Positions 4,613 through 56,285 of a DNA stretch of 64,000 bases are shown piece after piece. Both the position numbers and the translations under genes were made by a program. The stretch is from NCBI GenBank assembly GCA_002746885.1, contig PDRS01000008.1, forward strand, positions 3,376-67,375. Direction: 5' to 3'. How positions within the stretch are numbered: the stretch's first letter is position 1; each line of letters begins with the position of its first letter. The notes beneath the pieces were generated by a model. That model saw nothing but the letters and a program-made list of their open reading frames with translations. It ran no database searches and was not told the origin of the DNA. The DNA is from Candidatus Saccharimonadota bacterium. Its GTDB lineage: Bacteria > Patescibacteriota > Saccharimonadia > Saccharimonadales > UBA4665.

Positions 4613-5563
4613 ATGAAACCTTTGCTGCTGACGGTCGGCAATGTTTATCTTGACAATAATATTTATGGCGTTGAGTCAGACGAGGATAAGTTTAAACTCG
4701 AAGCTGGCAAGGAATACGCTGCAGCTGAAGCCAAGCGCGTGCCAGGGGGCTCAGCTGTGAATGTAGCCATGCAAGCTCGCCGACTAGGGGTTGACGTTGC
4801 ATTTGTTGGCAAAGTTGGCGAAGACGAAGCTGGAAAAGCAGTCAAAGCCTTGCTAGAAAAGGTAAACATAATGAGCCAGCTTGTGGGCGAGGATGCTACG
4901 CTAGACACTTCTATAGCAGTTAACCTCATCGGTCAAGACGGACAGTCTATCAGTATATACTACGGTAACGCCTCTAAGCAGCTATCGGCCGAAGACATCG
5001 ACATTAATAATGGCTTATTAGCCCGTGGTCAGGCCATATATTTTGGCGGCACCGCCAAACAGACTAAATTGTTAGCGAAAGGCGAGAGTCTGTTTCGGGA
5101 AATTCATAAGAAAAACGTAAAGATTTTCTATGACCCAAATCGTTTTCCCTTGCAAACCGAGGACAGTAGCCGCCAGACAATCCTTGGTCAACTAAAGTAT
5201 GTTGAAGGCTACTTTCCAAATGAGCAGGAATTGCTACAGTTGAGCGGAGAAACTTCTGTCGACAAAGCGTTAGACATGGTCCTGAGTAGAGGTGTGCGTT
5301 TTGTGGCACTAAAGCTAGGTGAACAAGGCTGTAGAGTCAAAACTCAGCAAGAAGATTTTGCGATTGACGGCCTAAAGGTCAAGCCACTAAGCACTGTCGG
5401 AGCAGGCGATTGTTTTAACGCGACTTTCATCGCCAACTATTTGATGAACAAACCTCTGGAAACCTGCGCTAGACTCGCCAATGCAGCTGCCGCTATAAAA
5501 GTCCAGCAAGATGTCTGGCCGAGCGCAACAATGATTGCTGACATGAGCAAAAACTCTGCGTAG
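4613..5563 (+). CDS. PfkB-family carbohydrate kinase
   Basis: Ribokinase-like fold motifs: the N-terminal GNVYLD block, GGSAVNVA, and the C-terminal STVGAGDCFNATF (PfkB signature 2). Confidence 0.8.
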   Translation: MKPLLLTVGNVYLDNNIYGVESDEDKFKLEAGKEYAAAEAKRVPGGSAVNVAMQARRLGVDVAFVGKVGEDEAGKAVKALLEKVNIMSQLVGEDATLDTSIAVNLIGQDGQSISIYYGNASKQLSAEDIDINNGLLARGQAIYFGGTAKQTKLLAKGESLFREIHKKNVKIFYDPNRFPLQTEDSSRQTILGQLKYVEGYFPNEQELLQLSGETSVDKALDMVLSRGVRFVALKLGEQGCRVKTQQEDFAIDGLKVKPLSTVGAGDCFNATFIANYLMNKPLETCARLANAAAAIKVQQDVWPSATMIADMSKNSA

Positions 5564-5616
5564 CTGTAGCGTAAGTGCCAGCAACTCATCGGCAGATTGA
5601 GGATATACAAACTTCT

Positions 5617-5643
5617 AAAAACAGCCGATGTTGGCTGTTTTTA
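5617..5643. terminator. bidirectional hairpin terminator
   Basis: AAAAACAGCCGATGTTGGCTGTTTTT: A-run, 6-bp stem, then T-run. It is usable by pfkB (+) and by the tRNA-Gln locus (-). Confidence 0.7.
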
Positions 5644-5646
5644 GAT

Positions 5647-5670
5647 TGGCTGGGGATGAGGGATTCGACC
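5647..5670 (-). pseudogene. tRNA-Gln 3' fragment (T-loop to CCA)
   Basis: The minus strand reads GGTCGAATCCCTCATCCCCAGCCA. Its last 22 nt are identical to the 3' end of the intact tRNA-Gln at 5840-5913. No 5' half is adjacent. Confidence 0.7.
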
Positions 5671-5757
5671 TACCTTCGGCAGGCCCGAAACTTCGCGATT
5701 GCCGAACCAGTCGGCATCGGAAGGTTTCCTTGCGACCCGCCACTGGCGGGTCTCACC
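5667..5757 (-). repeat. 91-nt hairpin-rich element, copy E2
   Basis: Minus-strand sequence is GGTGAGA-CCCGCCAGTGGCGGG-TCGCAAGGAAACCTTC-CGAT-GCCGACTGGTTCGGC-AATCGC-GAAGTT-TCGGGCCTGCCGAAGG-TAGGTC. It has the same length and block order as E1. Confidence 0.75.
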
Positions 5758-5766
5758 CCGCTCACT

Positions 5767-5790
5767 CCGTGATCGGGTGTTCGAGTTCTG
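5767..5790 (+). other. inverted fragment of tRNA-Gln (approx. positions 40-60)
   Basis: The plus strand reads CCGTGATCGGGTGTTCGAGTTCTG. The sense strand of the intact tRNA is CCGTGATCGGGGGTTCGAATCCCT. The fragment is therefore in the opposite orientation to the tRNA gene. Confidence 0.55.
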
Positions 5791-5803
5791 TACTAAAACA
5801 TAG

Positions 5804-5831
5804 CAAAAGACCCAGAGCTTACCTCTGGGTC
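5804..5831 (-). terminator. Rho-independent terminator after tRNA-Gln
   Basis: Minus strand reads GACCCAGAG-GTAAG-CTCTGGGTC followed by TTTTG. Confidence 0.75.
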
Positions 5832-5839
5832 GTTTGTTA

Positions 5840-5913
5840 TGGCTGGGGATGAGGGATTCGAACCCCCGATCACGGGACCAGAACCCGTTGCCTTACCGCT
5901 TGGCCAATCCCCA
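5840..5913 (-). tRNA. tRNA-Gln (anticodon CUG)
   Basis: Minus-strand sequence: TGGGGATTGGCCAAGCGGTAAGGCAACGGGTTCTGGTCCCGTGATCGGGGGTTCGAATCCCTCATCCCCAGCCA. It forms a cloverleaf with a U1-A72 pair, anticodon loop TTCTGGT and an encoded CCA. Confidence 0.9.
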
Positions 5914-5972
5914 ACATGAAACTCATTCGTTTCTCTTGCGCGTATTGTAAAGGTTCTGGTCGCCTGGGACCA

Positions 5973-6063
5973 GACTCACCTTCGGCGAGCCCGGAACTTC
6001 TGCCTTGAAAGCATAGCTTTCAGGTGAAGATTCCCTTGCGATAAGCCGCTGGCTTATCTCACC
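5973..6063 (-). repeat. 91-nt hairpin-rich element, copy E1
   Basis: Minus-strand sequence is GGTGAGA-TAAGCCAGCGGCTTA-TCGCAAGGGAATCTTC-ACC-TGAAAGCTATGCTTTCA-AGGCA-GAAGTT-CCGGGCTCGCCGAAGG-TGAGTC. See E2 for the matching block order. Confidence 0.75.
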
Positions 6064-6090
6064 GTTGCCTTACCGCTTGGCCAATCCCCA
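6061..6090 (-). pseudogene. tRNA-Gln 5' fragment (positions 1-30)
   Basis: The minus strand reads TGGGGATTGGCCAAGCGGTAAGGCAACGGT. Its first 29 nt are identical to the intact tRNA-Gln, and it then continues directly into E1. Confidence 0.7.
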
Positions 6091-6102
6091 AGAACACCCC
6101 AA

Positions 6103-6132
6103 ATTATACCGTACCAACGATAATTCTGCCAA
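6103..6132 (-). promoter_or_regulatory. sigma70-type promoter facing the tRNA-Gln 5' fragment
   Basis: On the minus strand: TTGGCA (6132-6127), an 18-nt spacer, then TATAAT (6108-6103). The tRNA-like 5' end begins 12 nt further downstream. Confidence 0.65.
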
Positions 6133-6140
6133 AGACTTAC

Positions 6141-6167
6141 AAAAAAACCAGCAGCAGCTGGTTTTTT
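6141..6167. terminator. bidirectional hairpin terminator
   Basis: AAAAAAACCAGCAGCAGCTGGTTTTTT. Confidence 0.6.
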
Positions 6168-6643
6168 CCTGAGGCTAAAAGCTTTTAGCCTACCTCTCAA
6201 AACTTCACACAGTTTCGTCTCTCAGACAGCGTTTTGAGCTGTCTCGCAATGCGCACCTCAAAACACTAATAGTTATTATAACACAGGTTTTTTCTCAGCA
6301 AACAATCTGGACGATTTTGCCGTTGTGATTTATTCTACAGCAGTTTCTACCTCTGTAATTTTCGAAAACAAACATATTGTATAGTATGTTTTTGCGTCGG
6401 GTTGCTGCCTCGCAGCAGACATTCCCAGCACATGCATGAGCCCCAAAAGCACAGCACGATACCAGCCCTCCAAGCCTGAATCTCAGCCAAAAATCATCAT
6501 AGTGCGCTGTGTGCGACGGCGCAGCAAAAAACTGCTTCGGTGGCATAGAAGCAGCTCTAGTATGTCTTCTAGCGTCTATGCGCCCAGAGCGCGAAAACGC
6601 GTTGCGGCGGCACATCTGACGCATTGCCCAAGGGGCACTTTCA

Positions 6644-8356: not shown

Positions 8357-9771
8357 TTATGAAGTTTGGCGGCACTTCGGTGGGCAACGCCGAGCGCATC
8401 GGCACGGTTGCAAAGCTTGTCAAAAGCAACCAAGCTTCGCGACCCGTCGTCGTTACCTCCGCCATGACGCAAATCACCAACCAGCTCGAAGAAATGGCCC
8501 GCCTTGCAACCGCTCAAAACCGCAAGCGTGCCATTGCCGCAAAACTTTCGGCGCTCAAAACCGTACACGAAGAAGCTATTGCGGGCCTGAAACTCGAACC
8601 AACCGCCGAAGCCGACCTGCGCGAAATCATACAGCAAAAGATTGCAATTCTCGACAACATACTCAAAAGCGTGACCTCGCTTGGCGAACTAACTCCGCGC
8701 GGCCGCGACCTCATTTTGTCTTTTGGCGAGCGGCTGTCTGTTCACCTCGTAGCAGCTGCTCTTAACCGCGAAGGCGTTCCAGCAGTTGCCGTCAATGCCA
8801 CCGACTACCTCATAACGGACGATAATTTCACTGACGCCCAGCCGCTGTTTACGCTCTCTAAGAAAAAAGCCCAAAAACTGCTTGTACCCCTCATAGAAAA
8901 CGGCACTGTGCCAGTGGTAACCGGTTTCATCGGTGCTACGCGCGACGGCGTCACAACCACTTTGGGCCGCGGCGGTTCTGATTTTTCGGCGACCATTCTC
9001 GGCTACTGCCTAGACGCAAAAGAGGTGTGGATATGGACCGATGTCGACGGTGTCATGACGAGCGATCCGCGTATTGTACCGCACGCTCGTTCCATAGCAT
9101 GCATGTCGTATGAAGAAGCCTCGGAGCTTTCATACTTTGGCGCAAAAGTCATTCATCCACGCACCATGACACCGACAGCTGAGCTCGGCATACCTATCGT
9201 CATCAAAAACACCATGAACCCAGATCATCCTGGCACGCGTATTACGCCAAAAGGCGATAGTACTGCTACCGGTGCCAGAGCGCTGACACTTATGAAAAAC
9301 CTTGCCATGATCACCATACAAGGCAAGGGTATGCGCGGCGTGTATGGTGTCGCAGCGCGTGTTTTCGACACTTTGGCAGTGGCGCACGTGAGCGTGCTGT
9401 TTATTTCTCAGGCATCGTCAGAAAACAACATCACCATCGTCGTCGAAAAAACCGACGGCCAAGTCGCTGCGCGGGCGCTGCGGCAAGCTTTTGCCGCCGC
9501 CATACGCAACAAACGGGTCGATCTCGTGGAATATCACAGCGGCGTATCTCTCATAGCCGTCGTGGGCGCCGGCATGCGTCATCACGTCGGTATTGCCGGA
9601 AAAATCTTTACTGCCCTTGGCGATAGACAGATTAACGTTGCTGCTATTGCCCAAGGCTCTTCCGAACTCAATATTACCCTCGTTGTCGAAAGCGACGCTG
9701 ACACAAAAGCCCTGCAGTGCATACACAATGCACTCTTCACAGCAAAAAACACGAAAGGAAACCGACTATGA
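8350..9771 (+). CDS. lysC: aspartate kinase
   Basis: MKFGGTSVGNAERI, VVVTSAM, GFIGATRDGVTTTLGRGGSDFSA and WTDVDGVMTSDPRIV are present, with two C-terminal ACT-like repeats. Confidence 0.9.
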   Translation: MLVMKFGGTSVGNAERIGTVAKLVKSNQASRPVVVTSAMTQITNQLEEMARLATAQNRKRAIAAKLSALKTVHEEAIAGLKLEPTAEADLREIIQQKIAILDNILKSVTSLGELTPRGRDLILSFGERLSVHLVAAALNREGVPAVAVNATDYLITDDNFTDAQPLFTLSKKKAQKLLVPLIENGTVPVVTGFIGATRDGVTTTLGRGGSDFSATILGYCLDAKEVWIWTDVDGVMTSDPRIVPHARSIACMSYEEASELSYFGAKVIHPRTMTPTAELGIPIVIKNTMNPDHPGTRITPKGDSTATGARALTLMKNLAMITIQGKGMRGVYGVAARVFDTLAVAHVSVLFISQASSENNITIVVEKTDGQVAARALRQAFAAAIRNKRVDLVEYHSGVSLIAVVGAGMRHHVGIAGKIFTALGDRQINVAAIAQGSSELNITLVVESDADTKALQCIHNALFTAKNTKGNRL

Positions 9772-10862
9772 ACACCTACAAAGCTGCTGTGCTTGGCGCA
9801 ACCGGCATGGTTGGTCAACGCTTCATTAGCTTACTAGACGAACACCCGTGGTTTCAGGTGGTGGCTGTGGCAGCATCGCCGCGCTCTGCGGGCAAATCAT
9901 ACCGCGAAGCAGTAGGCGAACGCTGGACCATGGCCAAACCCATACCATCTCGTGTTGCCGATTTGACCGTTCTGGCCGTCGAAGCAAACCTCGAAGCGAT
10001 TGCAGCTGAGGTTGATGTAGTGTTTTGCGCACTAGATATGGAGAAAGAAGCTATCCGGCGTATAGAAAAAGCCTATGCTGCCGCAGGTGTCGCAGTTATT
10101 TCTAACAACTCAGCGCACCGCTGGACGGAAGATGTTCCGATGATTATGCCAGAGGTCAACCCCGAACACGCCGCCCTCATACACACTCAGCGCAAAAACC
10201 GCGGCTGGACACATGGGTTCATTGCCGTCAAGCCAAACTGCTCTATTCAGTCATATGTATCGGTTCTGACGGCGCTCAAGGCGTATCGGCCGATTGATGT
10301 TGACGTTACAAGCCTGCAGGCCATTTCTGGCGCAGGCAAAACCTTTGCAACCTGGCCAGAAATGGTCGACAACGTCATACCGTACATAGGAGGCGAGGAA
10401 GAAAAAAGCGAAAAAGAACCCATGAAAATTTGGGGTACACTTGCAGACGATTCGGTGCAGCTGGCCGCTTCGCCGACCATAAACGCAACCTGCATTCGCG
10501 TACCTGTCAGCGACGGCCACATGGCGTCTGTGCGAGTGCAGTTTGCGCAGCCAGCGCGACAAGAAGAGCTGGTCGCTGCTATGCAGAATTTTTCTAATCC
10601 GCTCGCCGAACTTGCGCTGCCGTCTGCCCCGAAGCAACTCATCCAATACATCGATGACGAATCACGCCCCCAAACCAAACTTGACCGCGACTACGGAAAC
10701 GGGATGGGCGTATCTGTCGGGCGCTTGCGGGCGCTTAGCGAAAAACAGTGGCAGTTCATCGCCCTCGCCCACAACACCGTCAGAGGTGCTGCTGGCGGTG
10801 CCGTCCTCATGGCCGAACTATTAGCCGCCAAAGGCTACATACACTCCCGCGCAGGCAAGTAG
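9768..10862 (+). CDS. asd: aspartate-semialdehyde dehydrogenase
   Basis: MNTYKAAVLGATGMVGQRF is the N-terminal NAD(P) motif. The active-site region is KPNCSIQ. The C-terminal region is AHNTVRGAAGGAVL. Its start overlaps the lysC stop as ATGA. Confidence 0.9.
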   Translation: MNTYKAAVLGATGMVGQRFISLLDEHPWFQVVAVAASPRSAGKSYREAVGERWTMAKPIPSRVADLTVLAVEANLEAIAAEVDVVFCALDMEKEAIRRIEKAYAAAGVAVISNNSAHRWTEDVPMIMPEVNPEHAALIHTQRKNRGWTHGFIAVKPNCSIQSYVSVLTALKAYRPIDVDVTSLQAISGAGKTFATWPEMVDNVIPYIGGEEEKSEKEPMKIWGTLADDSVQLAASPTINATCIRVPVSDGHMASVRVQFAQPARQEELVAAMQNFSNPLAELALPSAPKQLIQYIDDESRPQTKLDRDYGNGMGVSVGRLRALSEKQWQFIALAHNTVRGAAGGAVLMAELLAAKGYIHSRAGK

Positions 10863-29874: not shown

Positions 29875-29951
29875 GGGGCTATAGCTCAGTTGGCTAGAGC
29901 GCTTCGCTGGCAGCGAAGAGGTCAGGAGTTCGAGTCTCCTTAGCTCCACCA
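29875..29951 (+). tRNA. tRNA-Ala (anticodon GGC)
   Basis: GGGGCTATAGCTCAGTTGGCTAGAGCGCTTCGCTGGCAGCGAAGAGGTCAGGAGTTCGAGTCTCCTTAGCTCCACCA. The G3:U70 identity pair is present and CCA is encoded. Confidence 0.9.
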
Positions 29952-40091: not shown

Positions 40092-40437
40092 TGGTGGAGC
40101 TGGCGGGTACCGCCCCCGCGTCCGCCGGACTTACCGGTGCGACTCTACAGGCTTAGTCTGTTTTGCTTGCTTAACGCTCGTATGAAACGTCCGCTAACTC
40201 TTCTGGCGTCGTTAGGGACATTTTGCAGCTTACTTAAGCTGCAAGAGCGTACGCGCTCTGGAGGCGGGGTGCAAATACAGCAGCCACGCCTTTACCAAAA
40301 GCTACGACGCTTTCTTTGATAGATTTTGCATCTATTCAGTGTTGCCTATAAGAAGTCCGCCTAATGGAGACTTCACGCTGACAAGCGACCTGCAATCATC
40401 ACCGAAATGTACCAACGTCGAGCTTAGATTCAGCCCC
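40092..40437 (-). ncRNA. ssrA: tmRNA (transfer-messenger RNA)
   Basis: The minus-strand 5' end is GGGGCTGAATCTAAGCTCGACG. The 3' end is GGACGCGGGGGCGGTACCCGCCAGCTCCACCA, with a G3:U pair in the acceptor stem. The internal tag frame ends ...QSAYALAA-TAA (40329-40234). A terminator hairpin follows at ~40050-40085. Confidence 0.9.
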
Positions 40438-56210: not shown

Positions 56211-56285
56211 GGCCCCATCTTCTAACGGTTAGGAAATCGGGTTTTCATCCCGGCAATAGGGGTTCGATTCCCCTTGGGGTCACCA
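56211..56285 (+). tRNA. tRNA-Glu (anticodon UUC)
   Basis: GGCCCCATCTTCTAACGGTTAGGAAATCGGGTTTTCATCCCGGCAATAGGGGTTCGATTCCCCTTGGGGTCACCA. The acceptor stem is GGCCCCA/TGGGGTC and CCA is encoded. A TGCTACAAT box lies ~70 nt upstream. Confidence 0.85.

Follow-up and report, generated by a model that had tools for sequence, protein, structure and literature searches.

The two 91-nt elements (E1 and E2) that accompany a tRNA-Gln(CUG) gene in a Candidatus Saccharimonadota bacterium are members of a large family of ~90-nt elements, here called E, found as far as seen in Saccharibacteria and neighboring bacteria of the candidate phyla radiation (CPR). They lie in a 64,000-nucleotide stretch of contig PDRS01000008.1 (assembly GCA_002746885.1, positions 3,376 to 67,375 of the forward strand), hereafter the window. 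E is a real and widespread family of structured elements associated with tRNA loops, and it provides more than 100 covarying sequences for a new family of RNA (or folded DNA) that is absent from Rfam. Our favored explanation, with a probability of about 0.5, is that E is a mobile element, intron-like and dependent on its structure, that inserts into tRNA loops, survives in duplicated tRNA fragments only and probably acts as RNA. CPR bacteria, including Saccharibacteria, have tiny genomes with single-copy tRNA genes, so a conserved, structured and apparently mobile tRNA-loop element is unexpected in them, and this one is always accompanied by a spare gene fragment. Literature searches returned no description of E, only general statements on introns in CPR tRNAs and rRNAs, and the family appears to be undescribed so far.

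Layout of the tRNA-Gln locus

Around tRNA-Gln(CUG) the window carries one upstream (A) unit, with E1 in an anticodon loop, and one downstream (B) unit, with E2 in a T loop. The features, all on the minus strand and given in the order in which they would be transcribed, are as follows:

6103..6132, minus strand: sigma-70-type promoter, TTGGCA-18-TATAAT, 11/12 consensus matches
6062..6090, minus strand: tRNA-Gln 5' fragment, nucleotides 1-29, an exact prefix match to the intact gene
5973..6063, minus strand: E1, 91 nt, three hairpins, in the anticodon loop of the fragment (101 bits with covariance model R1)
5952..5974, minus strand: hairpin TCTGGTC-CCAGGC-GACCAGA, in which TCTGGTC is a copy of tRNA 32-38 and GACCAGA its inverted copy, followed by ACC
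5914..5951, minus strand: spacer from the A unit to the intact tRNA, with a TACAAT box and no full promoter called
5840..5913, minus strand: intact tRNA-Gln(CUG), 74 nt (ARAGORN; 60.1 bits with the Rfam tRNA model)
5809..5831, minus strand: intrinsic terminator downstream of the intact tRNA
5767..5790, minus strand: inverted tRNA copy, positions about 39-60, with an uninterrupted T arm (reverse complement matching tRNA 39-56 at 17/18 positions)
5758..5765, minus strand: direct remnant of tRNA 41-48, GTGAGCGG, one mismatch to the tRNA, leading into E2
5667..5757, minus strand: E2, 91 nt, three hairpins, in the T loop of the 3' fragment (R1: 102 bits)
5647..5668, minus strand: tRNA-Gln 3' fragment, the last 22 nt from T loop to CCA, an exact match to tRNA 53-74
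5614..5645, minus strand: second intrinsic terminator, after the B unit

The site at 6132-6103 is the sole promoter-like site within 5550-6300 and probably drives the A unit and, beyond it, the intact tRNA. E1 was inserted after G29, its first GG(T) overlapping the tRNA fragment, and when it is removed in silico the rejoined GGU and UCUGGUC pair with GACCAGAACC in a 10-bp helix across the junction (z = -4.2). E2 is set into the T loop between T54 and T55/C56; immediately 5' of it, tRNA 41-50 persists as a direct remnant (GTGAGCGGGG), and the first TC of the 3' fragment doubles as the last pair of its third hairpin. The inverted copy at 5767..5790 is the upstream arm of the B unit and pairs with both E2 flanks once E2 is taken out, so that at both window copies the flanks form a helix over the insertion point. 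An initial annotation made from the letters alone had described this locus as a scrambled tRNA-Gln gene with two 91-nt elements whose helices covary. All of its minus-strand coordinates hold, as does the layout; the description as scrambled and as specific to Gln does not, since the same regular upstream and downstream units occur at 15 tRNA isotypes.

E folds into three covarying hairpins

E1 and E2 have the same length and are identical at 59 of 91 positions. RNAalifold applied to the pair gave three hairpins, in which 12 of the 34 pairs were altered on both sides and yet remained paired, and folding compared with each element's own shuffles gave z scores of -4.3 (E1) and -3.9 (E2). The E block pattern occurred twice in the window and not once in 100 shuffles of it. 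The first hairpin begins at base 3 of E, the long middle hairpin has GGAA/UUCC and CUUC/GAAG at its base, and the third hairpin closes at the last base. The covariation reported at the outset was thus reproduced, with amendments to the list of helices: besides the base of the middle hairpin just given, the proposed TTC(C)GG/CCGAA helix does not stand, the third hairpin being formed by GGGCUCGCC/GGUGAGUC in E1 and by GGGCCUGCC/GGUAGGUC in E2.

Extension of the comparison from two copies to an alignment of 109 distinct ones (alignment A2, 97 columns) strengthened this result considerably. Paired cells made up 95.6% in these copies, compared with 26-46% when the partners were slid, and 22 of the 34 pairs changed on both sides (569 cells), which none of 500 shuffles reached. 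Mutual information was confined to the helices, plus two extra pairs that lengthen the middle hairpin; the same test of the E alignment gave no pseudoknot or tertiary covariation. Copies that lay outside the search pattern and were found by the covariance model deviated in a compensatory way, GAGA/UCGC becoming GAAA/UUGC and CUUC/GAAG becoming UUUC/GAAA. Because the helices covary, selection must act on structure, and the earlier suggestion to that effect is now strongly supported. Across the family, G.U cells outnumbered A.C cells by 176 to 33, and this excess indicates that the folded strand is the tRNA-sense strand, whether as RNA or as sense single-stranded DNA. The ends of E in the alignment (5' GGUGAGA; 3' GGURRGUC or CGUGACC) are direct-like and not inverted.

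A second subfamily of E was also observed (L020:2073-2164, L084:28-119, L117:2090-2170 on the minus strand, and L051:14-107). It shares the 5' block with the first hairpin (GGTGAGA...TCGCAAGG) and the third hairpin, has a differing middle hairpin (AAGG-CC...GG-CGGG), and is often nested in, or adjoins, ordinary E copies.

Size and distribution of the family

An exact-pattern scan of a collection holding one genome per species found at least 120 loci, nearly all in Saccharibacteria metagenome-assembled genomes (MAGs), with more than one match in some genomes. Among the matches listed were the complete chromosomes CP064992.1 and OZ246406.1, and a few that carry the labels Parcubacteria, Doudnabacteria, Nevskiaceae and Burkholderiaceae. 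The Nevskiaceae-labeled locus (L005, DATLCF010000001.1) has 49% G+C and the Burkholderiaceae-labeled one (L043, JAYVTZ010000005.1) 44%, like the Saccharibacteria loci. These two labels are probably wrong; otherwise E occurs outside the CPR.

The initial annotation could match E to no known RNA family, and the Infernal-type check against Rfam that it proposed bears this out. At the gathering threshold of Rfam 15 (4227 models) the window returned tRNAs and transfer-messenger RNA (tmRNA) only, and at E<=10 over 5500-6300 both E1 and E2 went unmatched save for weak chance hits overlapping the terminators. The E pattern had no match in 2.9 million viral contigs (IMG/VR), and BLAST of phage and plasmid collections recovered no E. 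A shorter 15-base pattern gave 120 viral matches, which are probably chance.

A further possibility is that the locus is a plain decaying tandem tRNA duplication or an artefact of MAG assembly. The window does derive from a MAG, and an independently assembled Logan contig from the same sample (L002, SRR6011892_44507) breaks inside the intact tRNA-Gln, ~306 nt past the kinase stop, as is typical of repeats; there is also an N-gap inside the tandem units of L076. Yet E2 and its 3' fragment are present on that same independent contig, and the architecture recurs in more than 120 independent assemblies, the two complete chromosomes included. Covariation and the conservation of orthologs are incompatible with decay, and for practical purposes this explanation is refuted. 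E units, together with the tRNA fragments they carry, are a probable source of contig breaks in CPR assemblies, and would explain why broken assemblies and pseudo-tRNA calls recur in CPR MAGs.

In L076 (4500-5110), at least three tandem 190-nt A units follow one another, each made up of a promoter, the 5' part of a tRNA-Arg whose D arm is altered, and E. The true copy number of this array, which holds the N-gap, was probably collapsed by assembly.

E units stand beside intact tRNA genes in two layouts

Of 130 E copies, 91 had an intact same-strand tRNA within 120 nt (60 upstream, 31 downstream), one had a tRNA on the opposite strand and 38 had no nearby tRNA, 16 of these lying at the end of a locus. 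E was therefore on the same strand as the tRNA in 91 of 92 tRNA-adjacent copies, and the neighboring tRNAs covered 15 isotypes. Alignment of the flanks to the tRNAs yielded two recurrent layouts. The A unit consists of a promoter, tRNA 1 to ~54, E, ~8 nt of T loop and a short inverted copy ending in ACC, with the intact tRNA ~40 nt downstream. In the B unit, the intact tRNA is followed by a bidirectional terminator, an inverted tRNA 3' part (often starting TGG), a small loop, tRNA 41-54, E, tRNA 55/56-76 and then a terminator. In B units the tRNA 3' part is thus triplicated in direct-inverted-direct order: 29 of 57 B spacers contained an inverted copy of tRNA ~46-63 that scored above the 99th percentile of shuffles, and many B spacers begin with TGG directly past the terminator.

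The insertion site is narrowly defined. E follows directly on GG(T), its start being the tRNA's own GGT (positions 52-54) in the T loop. Most copies lie between T54 and T55/C56 of that loop, and others in the anticodon loop, the D loop or another E; anticodon-loop copies were found for Gln, Pro, Leu and Ser, and a D-loop copy in tRNA-Glu (L090). The last pair of E uses T55/C56 or replaces them, so that in silico excision leaves the tRNA one base short, and the tRNA sequence beside E resumes after a loss of 1-3 nt without a target duplication. None of the 130 copies lies in a complete tRNA; the tRNA copies that host E are partial, those of A units ending near position 62 and those of B units beginning near 41. 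Some pseudo-tRNAs hold two or three copies of E (anticodon and T loop in L117; D and T loop in L090), in L020 and L084 E is nested in the third hairpin of another E, and for tRNA-Gln the position of E varies between genomes. An inverted segment that pairs with both flanks of E is clear in about a third to a half of units, and E then protrudes, with its three hairpins, from one strand of a helix.

Two E copies have flanks that do not lie beside a same-strand tRNA (L104:4321-4500 and L098:166-256). In L104 an intact tRNA-Gly(CCC), encoded on the other strand, meets the E-bearing fragment tail-to-tail, an inverted arrangement of two copies and not three. A tmRNA was considered as the context of these orphan copies and rejected, as neither locus gave a tmRNA call or similarity to the window tmRNA.

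E has probably moved between tRNA genes and is conserved in place

Nearest-neighbor E copies are 90-96% identical while residing at different tRNA isotypes, in A and B contexts and in different genomes, which indicates that E moved independently of its flanks. Copies inside one genome all differ, so there has been no recent burst. A first hairpin specific to each genome was considered and rejected, identity being found only between copies of the same locus and not genome-wide.

Locus L083 is a syntenic ortholog of the window A unit, its flanking gene being 78% identical. Its promoter and spacer have diverged from those of the window beyond alignment (in the spacer at 5914..5951 about half of the columns changed, plus indels, so that it evolves freely), whereas the 5' fragment (28/29), E (85/91) and the hairpin (22/23) match the tRNA itself in their degree of conservation. 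Loops or a bulge account for all six E1 differences, and the hairpin has its one change in the loop. A C-to-T change in the L083 5' fragment is mirrored in the intact tRNA, implying concerted evolution. A second orthologous pair, L006 and L014, has one compensatory pair difference, and of the double changes in 30 independent close E pairs, 49 preserve pairing and 5 disrupt it. In the two orthologous pairs, selection has maintained the E fold after insertion.

The main rival to our explanation is that E units are not mobile elements and are host-beneficial non-coding RNAs, acting as structured leader or trailer domains on tRNA fragments. Such RNAs would regulate or insulate the maturation of the neighboring tRNA, or yield stable tRNA-fragment RNAs, and would have spread only via duplication and gene conversion between tRNA loci. 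Purifying selection on E, fragment and hairpin while the spacers decay, the concerted C-to-T change, the placement of the A unit between the sole strong promoter and the tRNA, the diversity of copies within each genome and the sense-strand-specific folding all suit a host RNA. Its difficulties are that a nested E destroys the third hairpin of the outer E, that some pseudo-tRNAs carry several E copies, that copies 93-96% identical stand at unrelated tRNAs in A and B layouts, that the layout for one tRNA varies across genomes, and that B units sit behind a terminator without a promoter of their own; no ligand, protein or target is known for such an RNA. We regard this rival as rather unlikely; host function and mobility may coexist.

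How E might insert and persist

Under the mobile-element explanation, E would copy itself from one tRNA-like loop into another. As tRNA genes are essential, surviving insertions would be restricted to a redundant partial copy beside the intact gene, and survival in redundant copies only would give rise to the two recurrent layouts, A and B. E would most likely act as an RNA co-transcribed with the tRNA, a suggestion that follows from the position of E1 in the leader from the sole strong promoter. The use of all three loops of the cloverleaf suggests that the target is recognized in a folded, single-stranded state, as RNA or as sense DNA. Two candidate routes would fit: E could insert at the RNA level by a reverse-splicing-like reaction and then be copied into DNA, or it could enter the sense strand while this is folded and single-stranded, as IS200/IS605 elements do.

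The first of these routes has a more specific form, in which E is an RNA-level mobile element, a small structured RNA that inserts itself into tRNA or pre-tRNA loops after GG(U). A reversible cleavage-ligation or reverse-splicing-like reaction into the D, anticodon and T loops would be guided by the complementary flanking arm, which would align both sides, and the chimeric RNA would be fixed by copying into DNA. We put this forward tentatively and think it rather improbable. On an equal footing with it, the splinted RNAs of tRNA fragment and E may have a cellular role, for example in repairing or controlling tRNAs that have been cleaved in their T loop.

Several points weigh against the mobile, RNA-acting explanation. 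No enzyme or catalytic activity was identified for E, and the survivorship account of the partial duplications is one that we infer. The preference for RNA over single-stranded DNA is based solely on the asymmetry between G.U and A.C and on the conservation of copies in place. In a pseudogene, a purely selfish insert would not be expected to come under purifying selection, as resident copies have; such selection suits a host function at least as well. Pairing across the junction is moderate family-wide and clear in only a third to a half of units (mean z of duplex energy -1.5, with 35 of 103 units below -2), and an ungapped junction-helix test, too lenient to discriminate, came out barely above its controls. 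Finally, the search pattern fixes 21 bases and was built from blocks common to E1 and E2, so the invariance of GGUGAGA, UCGCAAGG and CUUC among the copies collected with it is partly an artefact.

Comparison with known mobile and structured elements

The closest biological parallel is the transposition of tRNA introns in Thermoproteales. As reported through PMC10714607, these are short non-coding inserts at several tRNA positions that have moved between tRNA species (Fujishima et al. 2010). Archaeal mobile introns and split tRNAs resemble E in being short inserts in the D, anticodon and T regions that moved between tRNA species, and in having tRNA fragments flanked by pairable sequences. They differ in residing in functional genes, where a protein endonuclease cuts a bulge-helix-bulge and the tRNA is restored. 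E, in contrast, is bacterial, lies only in truncated tRNA copies beside an intact gene, has its own conserved three-hairpin fold, and does not restore a tRNA when removed; a bulge-helix-bulge intron would sit in a complete tRNA and be exactly removable, and 0/130 E copies lie in a complete tRNA. E may be a parallel, in bacteria, to the mobile introns and split tRNAs of archaea.

Group I introns have a conserved P3-P8 core, are usually at least 200 nt long and restore the tRNA on excision. E gave no Intron_gpI hit, is 91 nt long with three simple hairpins and has no pseudoknot signal. These comparisons bear on the proposal that E is a tRNA intron in degenerate or miniature form, or else a small ribozyme capable of self-cleavage or self-ligation, that is removed from or processes the tRNA transcript. 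Its position in tRNA loops, compact three-hairpin fold and short conserved joining bases are what one would look for in such an RNA; judging from the promoter position it would be co-transcribed with the tRNA, the flanking arm aligns both "exon" sides like a guide sequence, and mobile tRNA introns at non-canonical positions exist in archaeal Thermoproteales (cited in PMC10714607). Even so, no Rfam model matched at E<=10, group I introns and all small ribozymes included, removal of E leaves the tRNA one base short, no complete tRNA carries E (A units end near 62, B units begin near 41), and the host is a bacterium with tmRNA. We consider this proposal very unlikely. The part of the initial annotation that saw an RNA transcribed from the tRNA promoter is compatible with the data and probably partly right, while neither a literal tRNA intron nor a known ribozyme is supported.

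Among DNA elements, classical miniature inverted-repeat transposable elements have terminal inverted repeats and a target-site duplication; the ends of E are direct-like and there is no target duplication. The palindrome-associated transposable elements (PATEs) derived from IS200/IS605 and the repetitive extragenic palindromic (REP) elements, which are mobilized by Y1 HUH transposases, come closer. Like E, they lack inverted ends and target duplication, have hairpins near both ends, insert 3' of a fixed short sequence (GG(T) in the case of E) with strict strandedness, form nested copies and use a target plausibly exposed as folded single-stranded DNA. E thus shows the sequence hallmarks of the IS200/IS605 type (subterminal hairpins, a fixed 5' neighbor, one strand). 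It departs from PATEs and REPs in that all three of its hairpins covary, the long central one included, with frequent and conserved G.U pairs that point to RNA, in the purifying selection on resident copies, and in a copy number per genome that seems low, with diverse copies. The G.U-rich covariation and conservation in place fit RNA better than an IS200/IS605-type miniature element. A hairpin-forming repeat targeting tRNA-Gln had been another suggestion of the initial annotation; it is compatible with these results and probably partly right, save for the restriction to Gln, as 15 isotypes are involved.

Folded-strand recombination sites offer a further comparison. An attC site is one imperfect hairpin with R and L boxes that needs the integron integrase, and the CTX phage uses XerCD at dif. 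As with E, attC and the CTX attP keep structure rather than sequence and one strand folds, and integration of a folded strand leaves direct and inverted arms side by side, resembling the arrangement beside E. E differs in having three independent hairpins, tRNA-loop targets in a tRNA-gene context without cassette arrays, and no linked tyrosine recombinase; an integron integrase was not searched for. For the B units, tandem inversion duplications studied in the Roth laboratory reportedly yield direct-inverted-direct triplications by snap-back at quasi-palindromes. B units are alike in their order of intact tRNA, terminator hairpin, inverted 3' part and direct 3' part, their junctions coinciding with the terminator hairpin and a small new palindrome, and in the window the intact tRNA is followed by tRNA 39-56 in reverse complement and then by 41-50, E2 and 53-74. 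Tandem inversion duplications are, however, unstable laboratory intermediates of many kilobases, whereas B units are ~40 nt, always have E in the outer copy and are conserved between species.

Should E act as RNA, it could bring to light a new chemistry of insertion, or a new layer in how epibiotic bacteria control their tRNAs. Insertion at the RNA level, if true, would make E a self-inserting RNA or ribozyme of a new class, the bacterial equivalent of the mobile tRNA introns of archaea.

Serine-recombinase islands share tRNA loci with E

Four E loci border islands with serine recombinases. The large serine recombinase of L053 (1888-3597) belongs to a 4.2-kb island that lies exactly between the intact tRNA-Gln and the B unit; related recombinases lie near E in L012 (7212-8000), L028 (5194-6633) and L077 (3532-5304), and a TraG-like gene near E in L050. 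A metagenome scan found more than 560 relatives of the L053-type recombinase. Those examined (metagenome loci L244-L323) are almost always tail-to-tail with a tRNA 3' end of varying isotype, the recombinase reading frame often running into the antisense tRNA, pointing to a sizeable family of islands that target tRNAs in CPR bacteria. None of the 80 relative loci that were fetched contained E, and displaced tRNA fragments stood at the island ends of two of 14 long loci. An apparent tRNA 5' fragment in L245 was rejected, being simply another tRNA-Leu gene.

These islands raise the question of whether E units are attP-derived ends of tRNA-targeting integrative elements, such as the islands of large serine recombinases, the cargo-free units being emptied or trans-mobilized mini-elements. 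The fit of the L053 island between tRNA-Gln and its E unit, the recombinases and the TraG-like gene near other copies, and the near-constant abutment of this recombinase family on a tRNA 3' end would all be expected, and the island of L315 carries at its end an inverted arm, a structured module other than E and the 3' fragment of a tRNA-Glu. Set against this are the 0/80 loci with recombinase relatives that hold E (573 kb searched), some 90 units that are cargo-free with a short and constant spacer, and the lack of E in IMG/VR and in the phage and plasmid collections. Serine recombinases, which act on double strands, would not select a strand-specific fold with G.U pairs. The left end of the island is conserved at two sites, one at a tRNA-Gln and the other at a tRNA-Leu, which suggests that the island inserted beside a pre-existing unit. 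We find an attachment-site origin very improbable. The absence of E from the 80 loci, which bears less on distant modules such as that of L315, leads us to treat the islands as neighbors at the same tRNA loci and not as the explanation of E. The scars of an integrative element proposed at the outset have the anecdotal support of the four bordering units.

Two structured inserts other than E were seen in similar positions. At the end of the 9.7-kb island of L315 (reverse strand, ~9690-9836) the tRNA-Glu 3' fragment is preceded by an inverted arm and a non-E insert, and in L020 (1800-1930) a B-like unit has a tRNA 3' fragment preceded by an inverted arm and an unrelated non-E insert. Both inserts start with GGAGG, and the one in L315 closes with a CGGGGTCGAG...CTCGTGACC hairpin resembling that of E. 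Such tRNA-fragment modules may include further families.

Neighboring genes in the window

The genes around the locus are ordinary chromosomal genes. A protein of the Candidatus Saccharibacteria MAG GCA_002754915.1 shows 100% identity to the flanking sugar kinase, the next relatives being at ~62%. Elsewhere in the window, tRNA-Ala(GGC) (29875-29951), tRNA-Glu(UUC) (56211-56285) and the tmRNA (40092-40437) have no E unit, which indicates that only some tRNA genes of a genome are occupied. Upstream of the A-unit promoter (6142-6250, minus strand) there is a sub-threshold match to rsmX (25 bits, E=0.015, gathering score 56) that covers two hairpins and a terminator, and is probably just the terminator of the neighboring gene.

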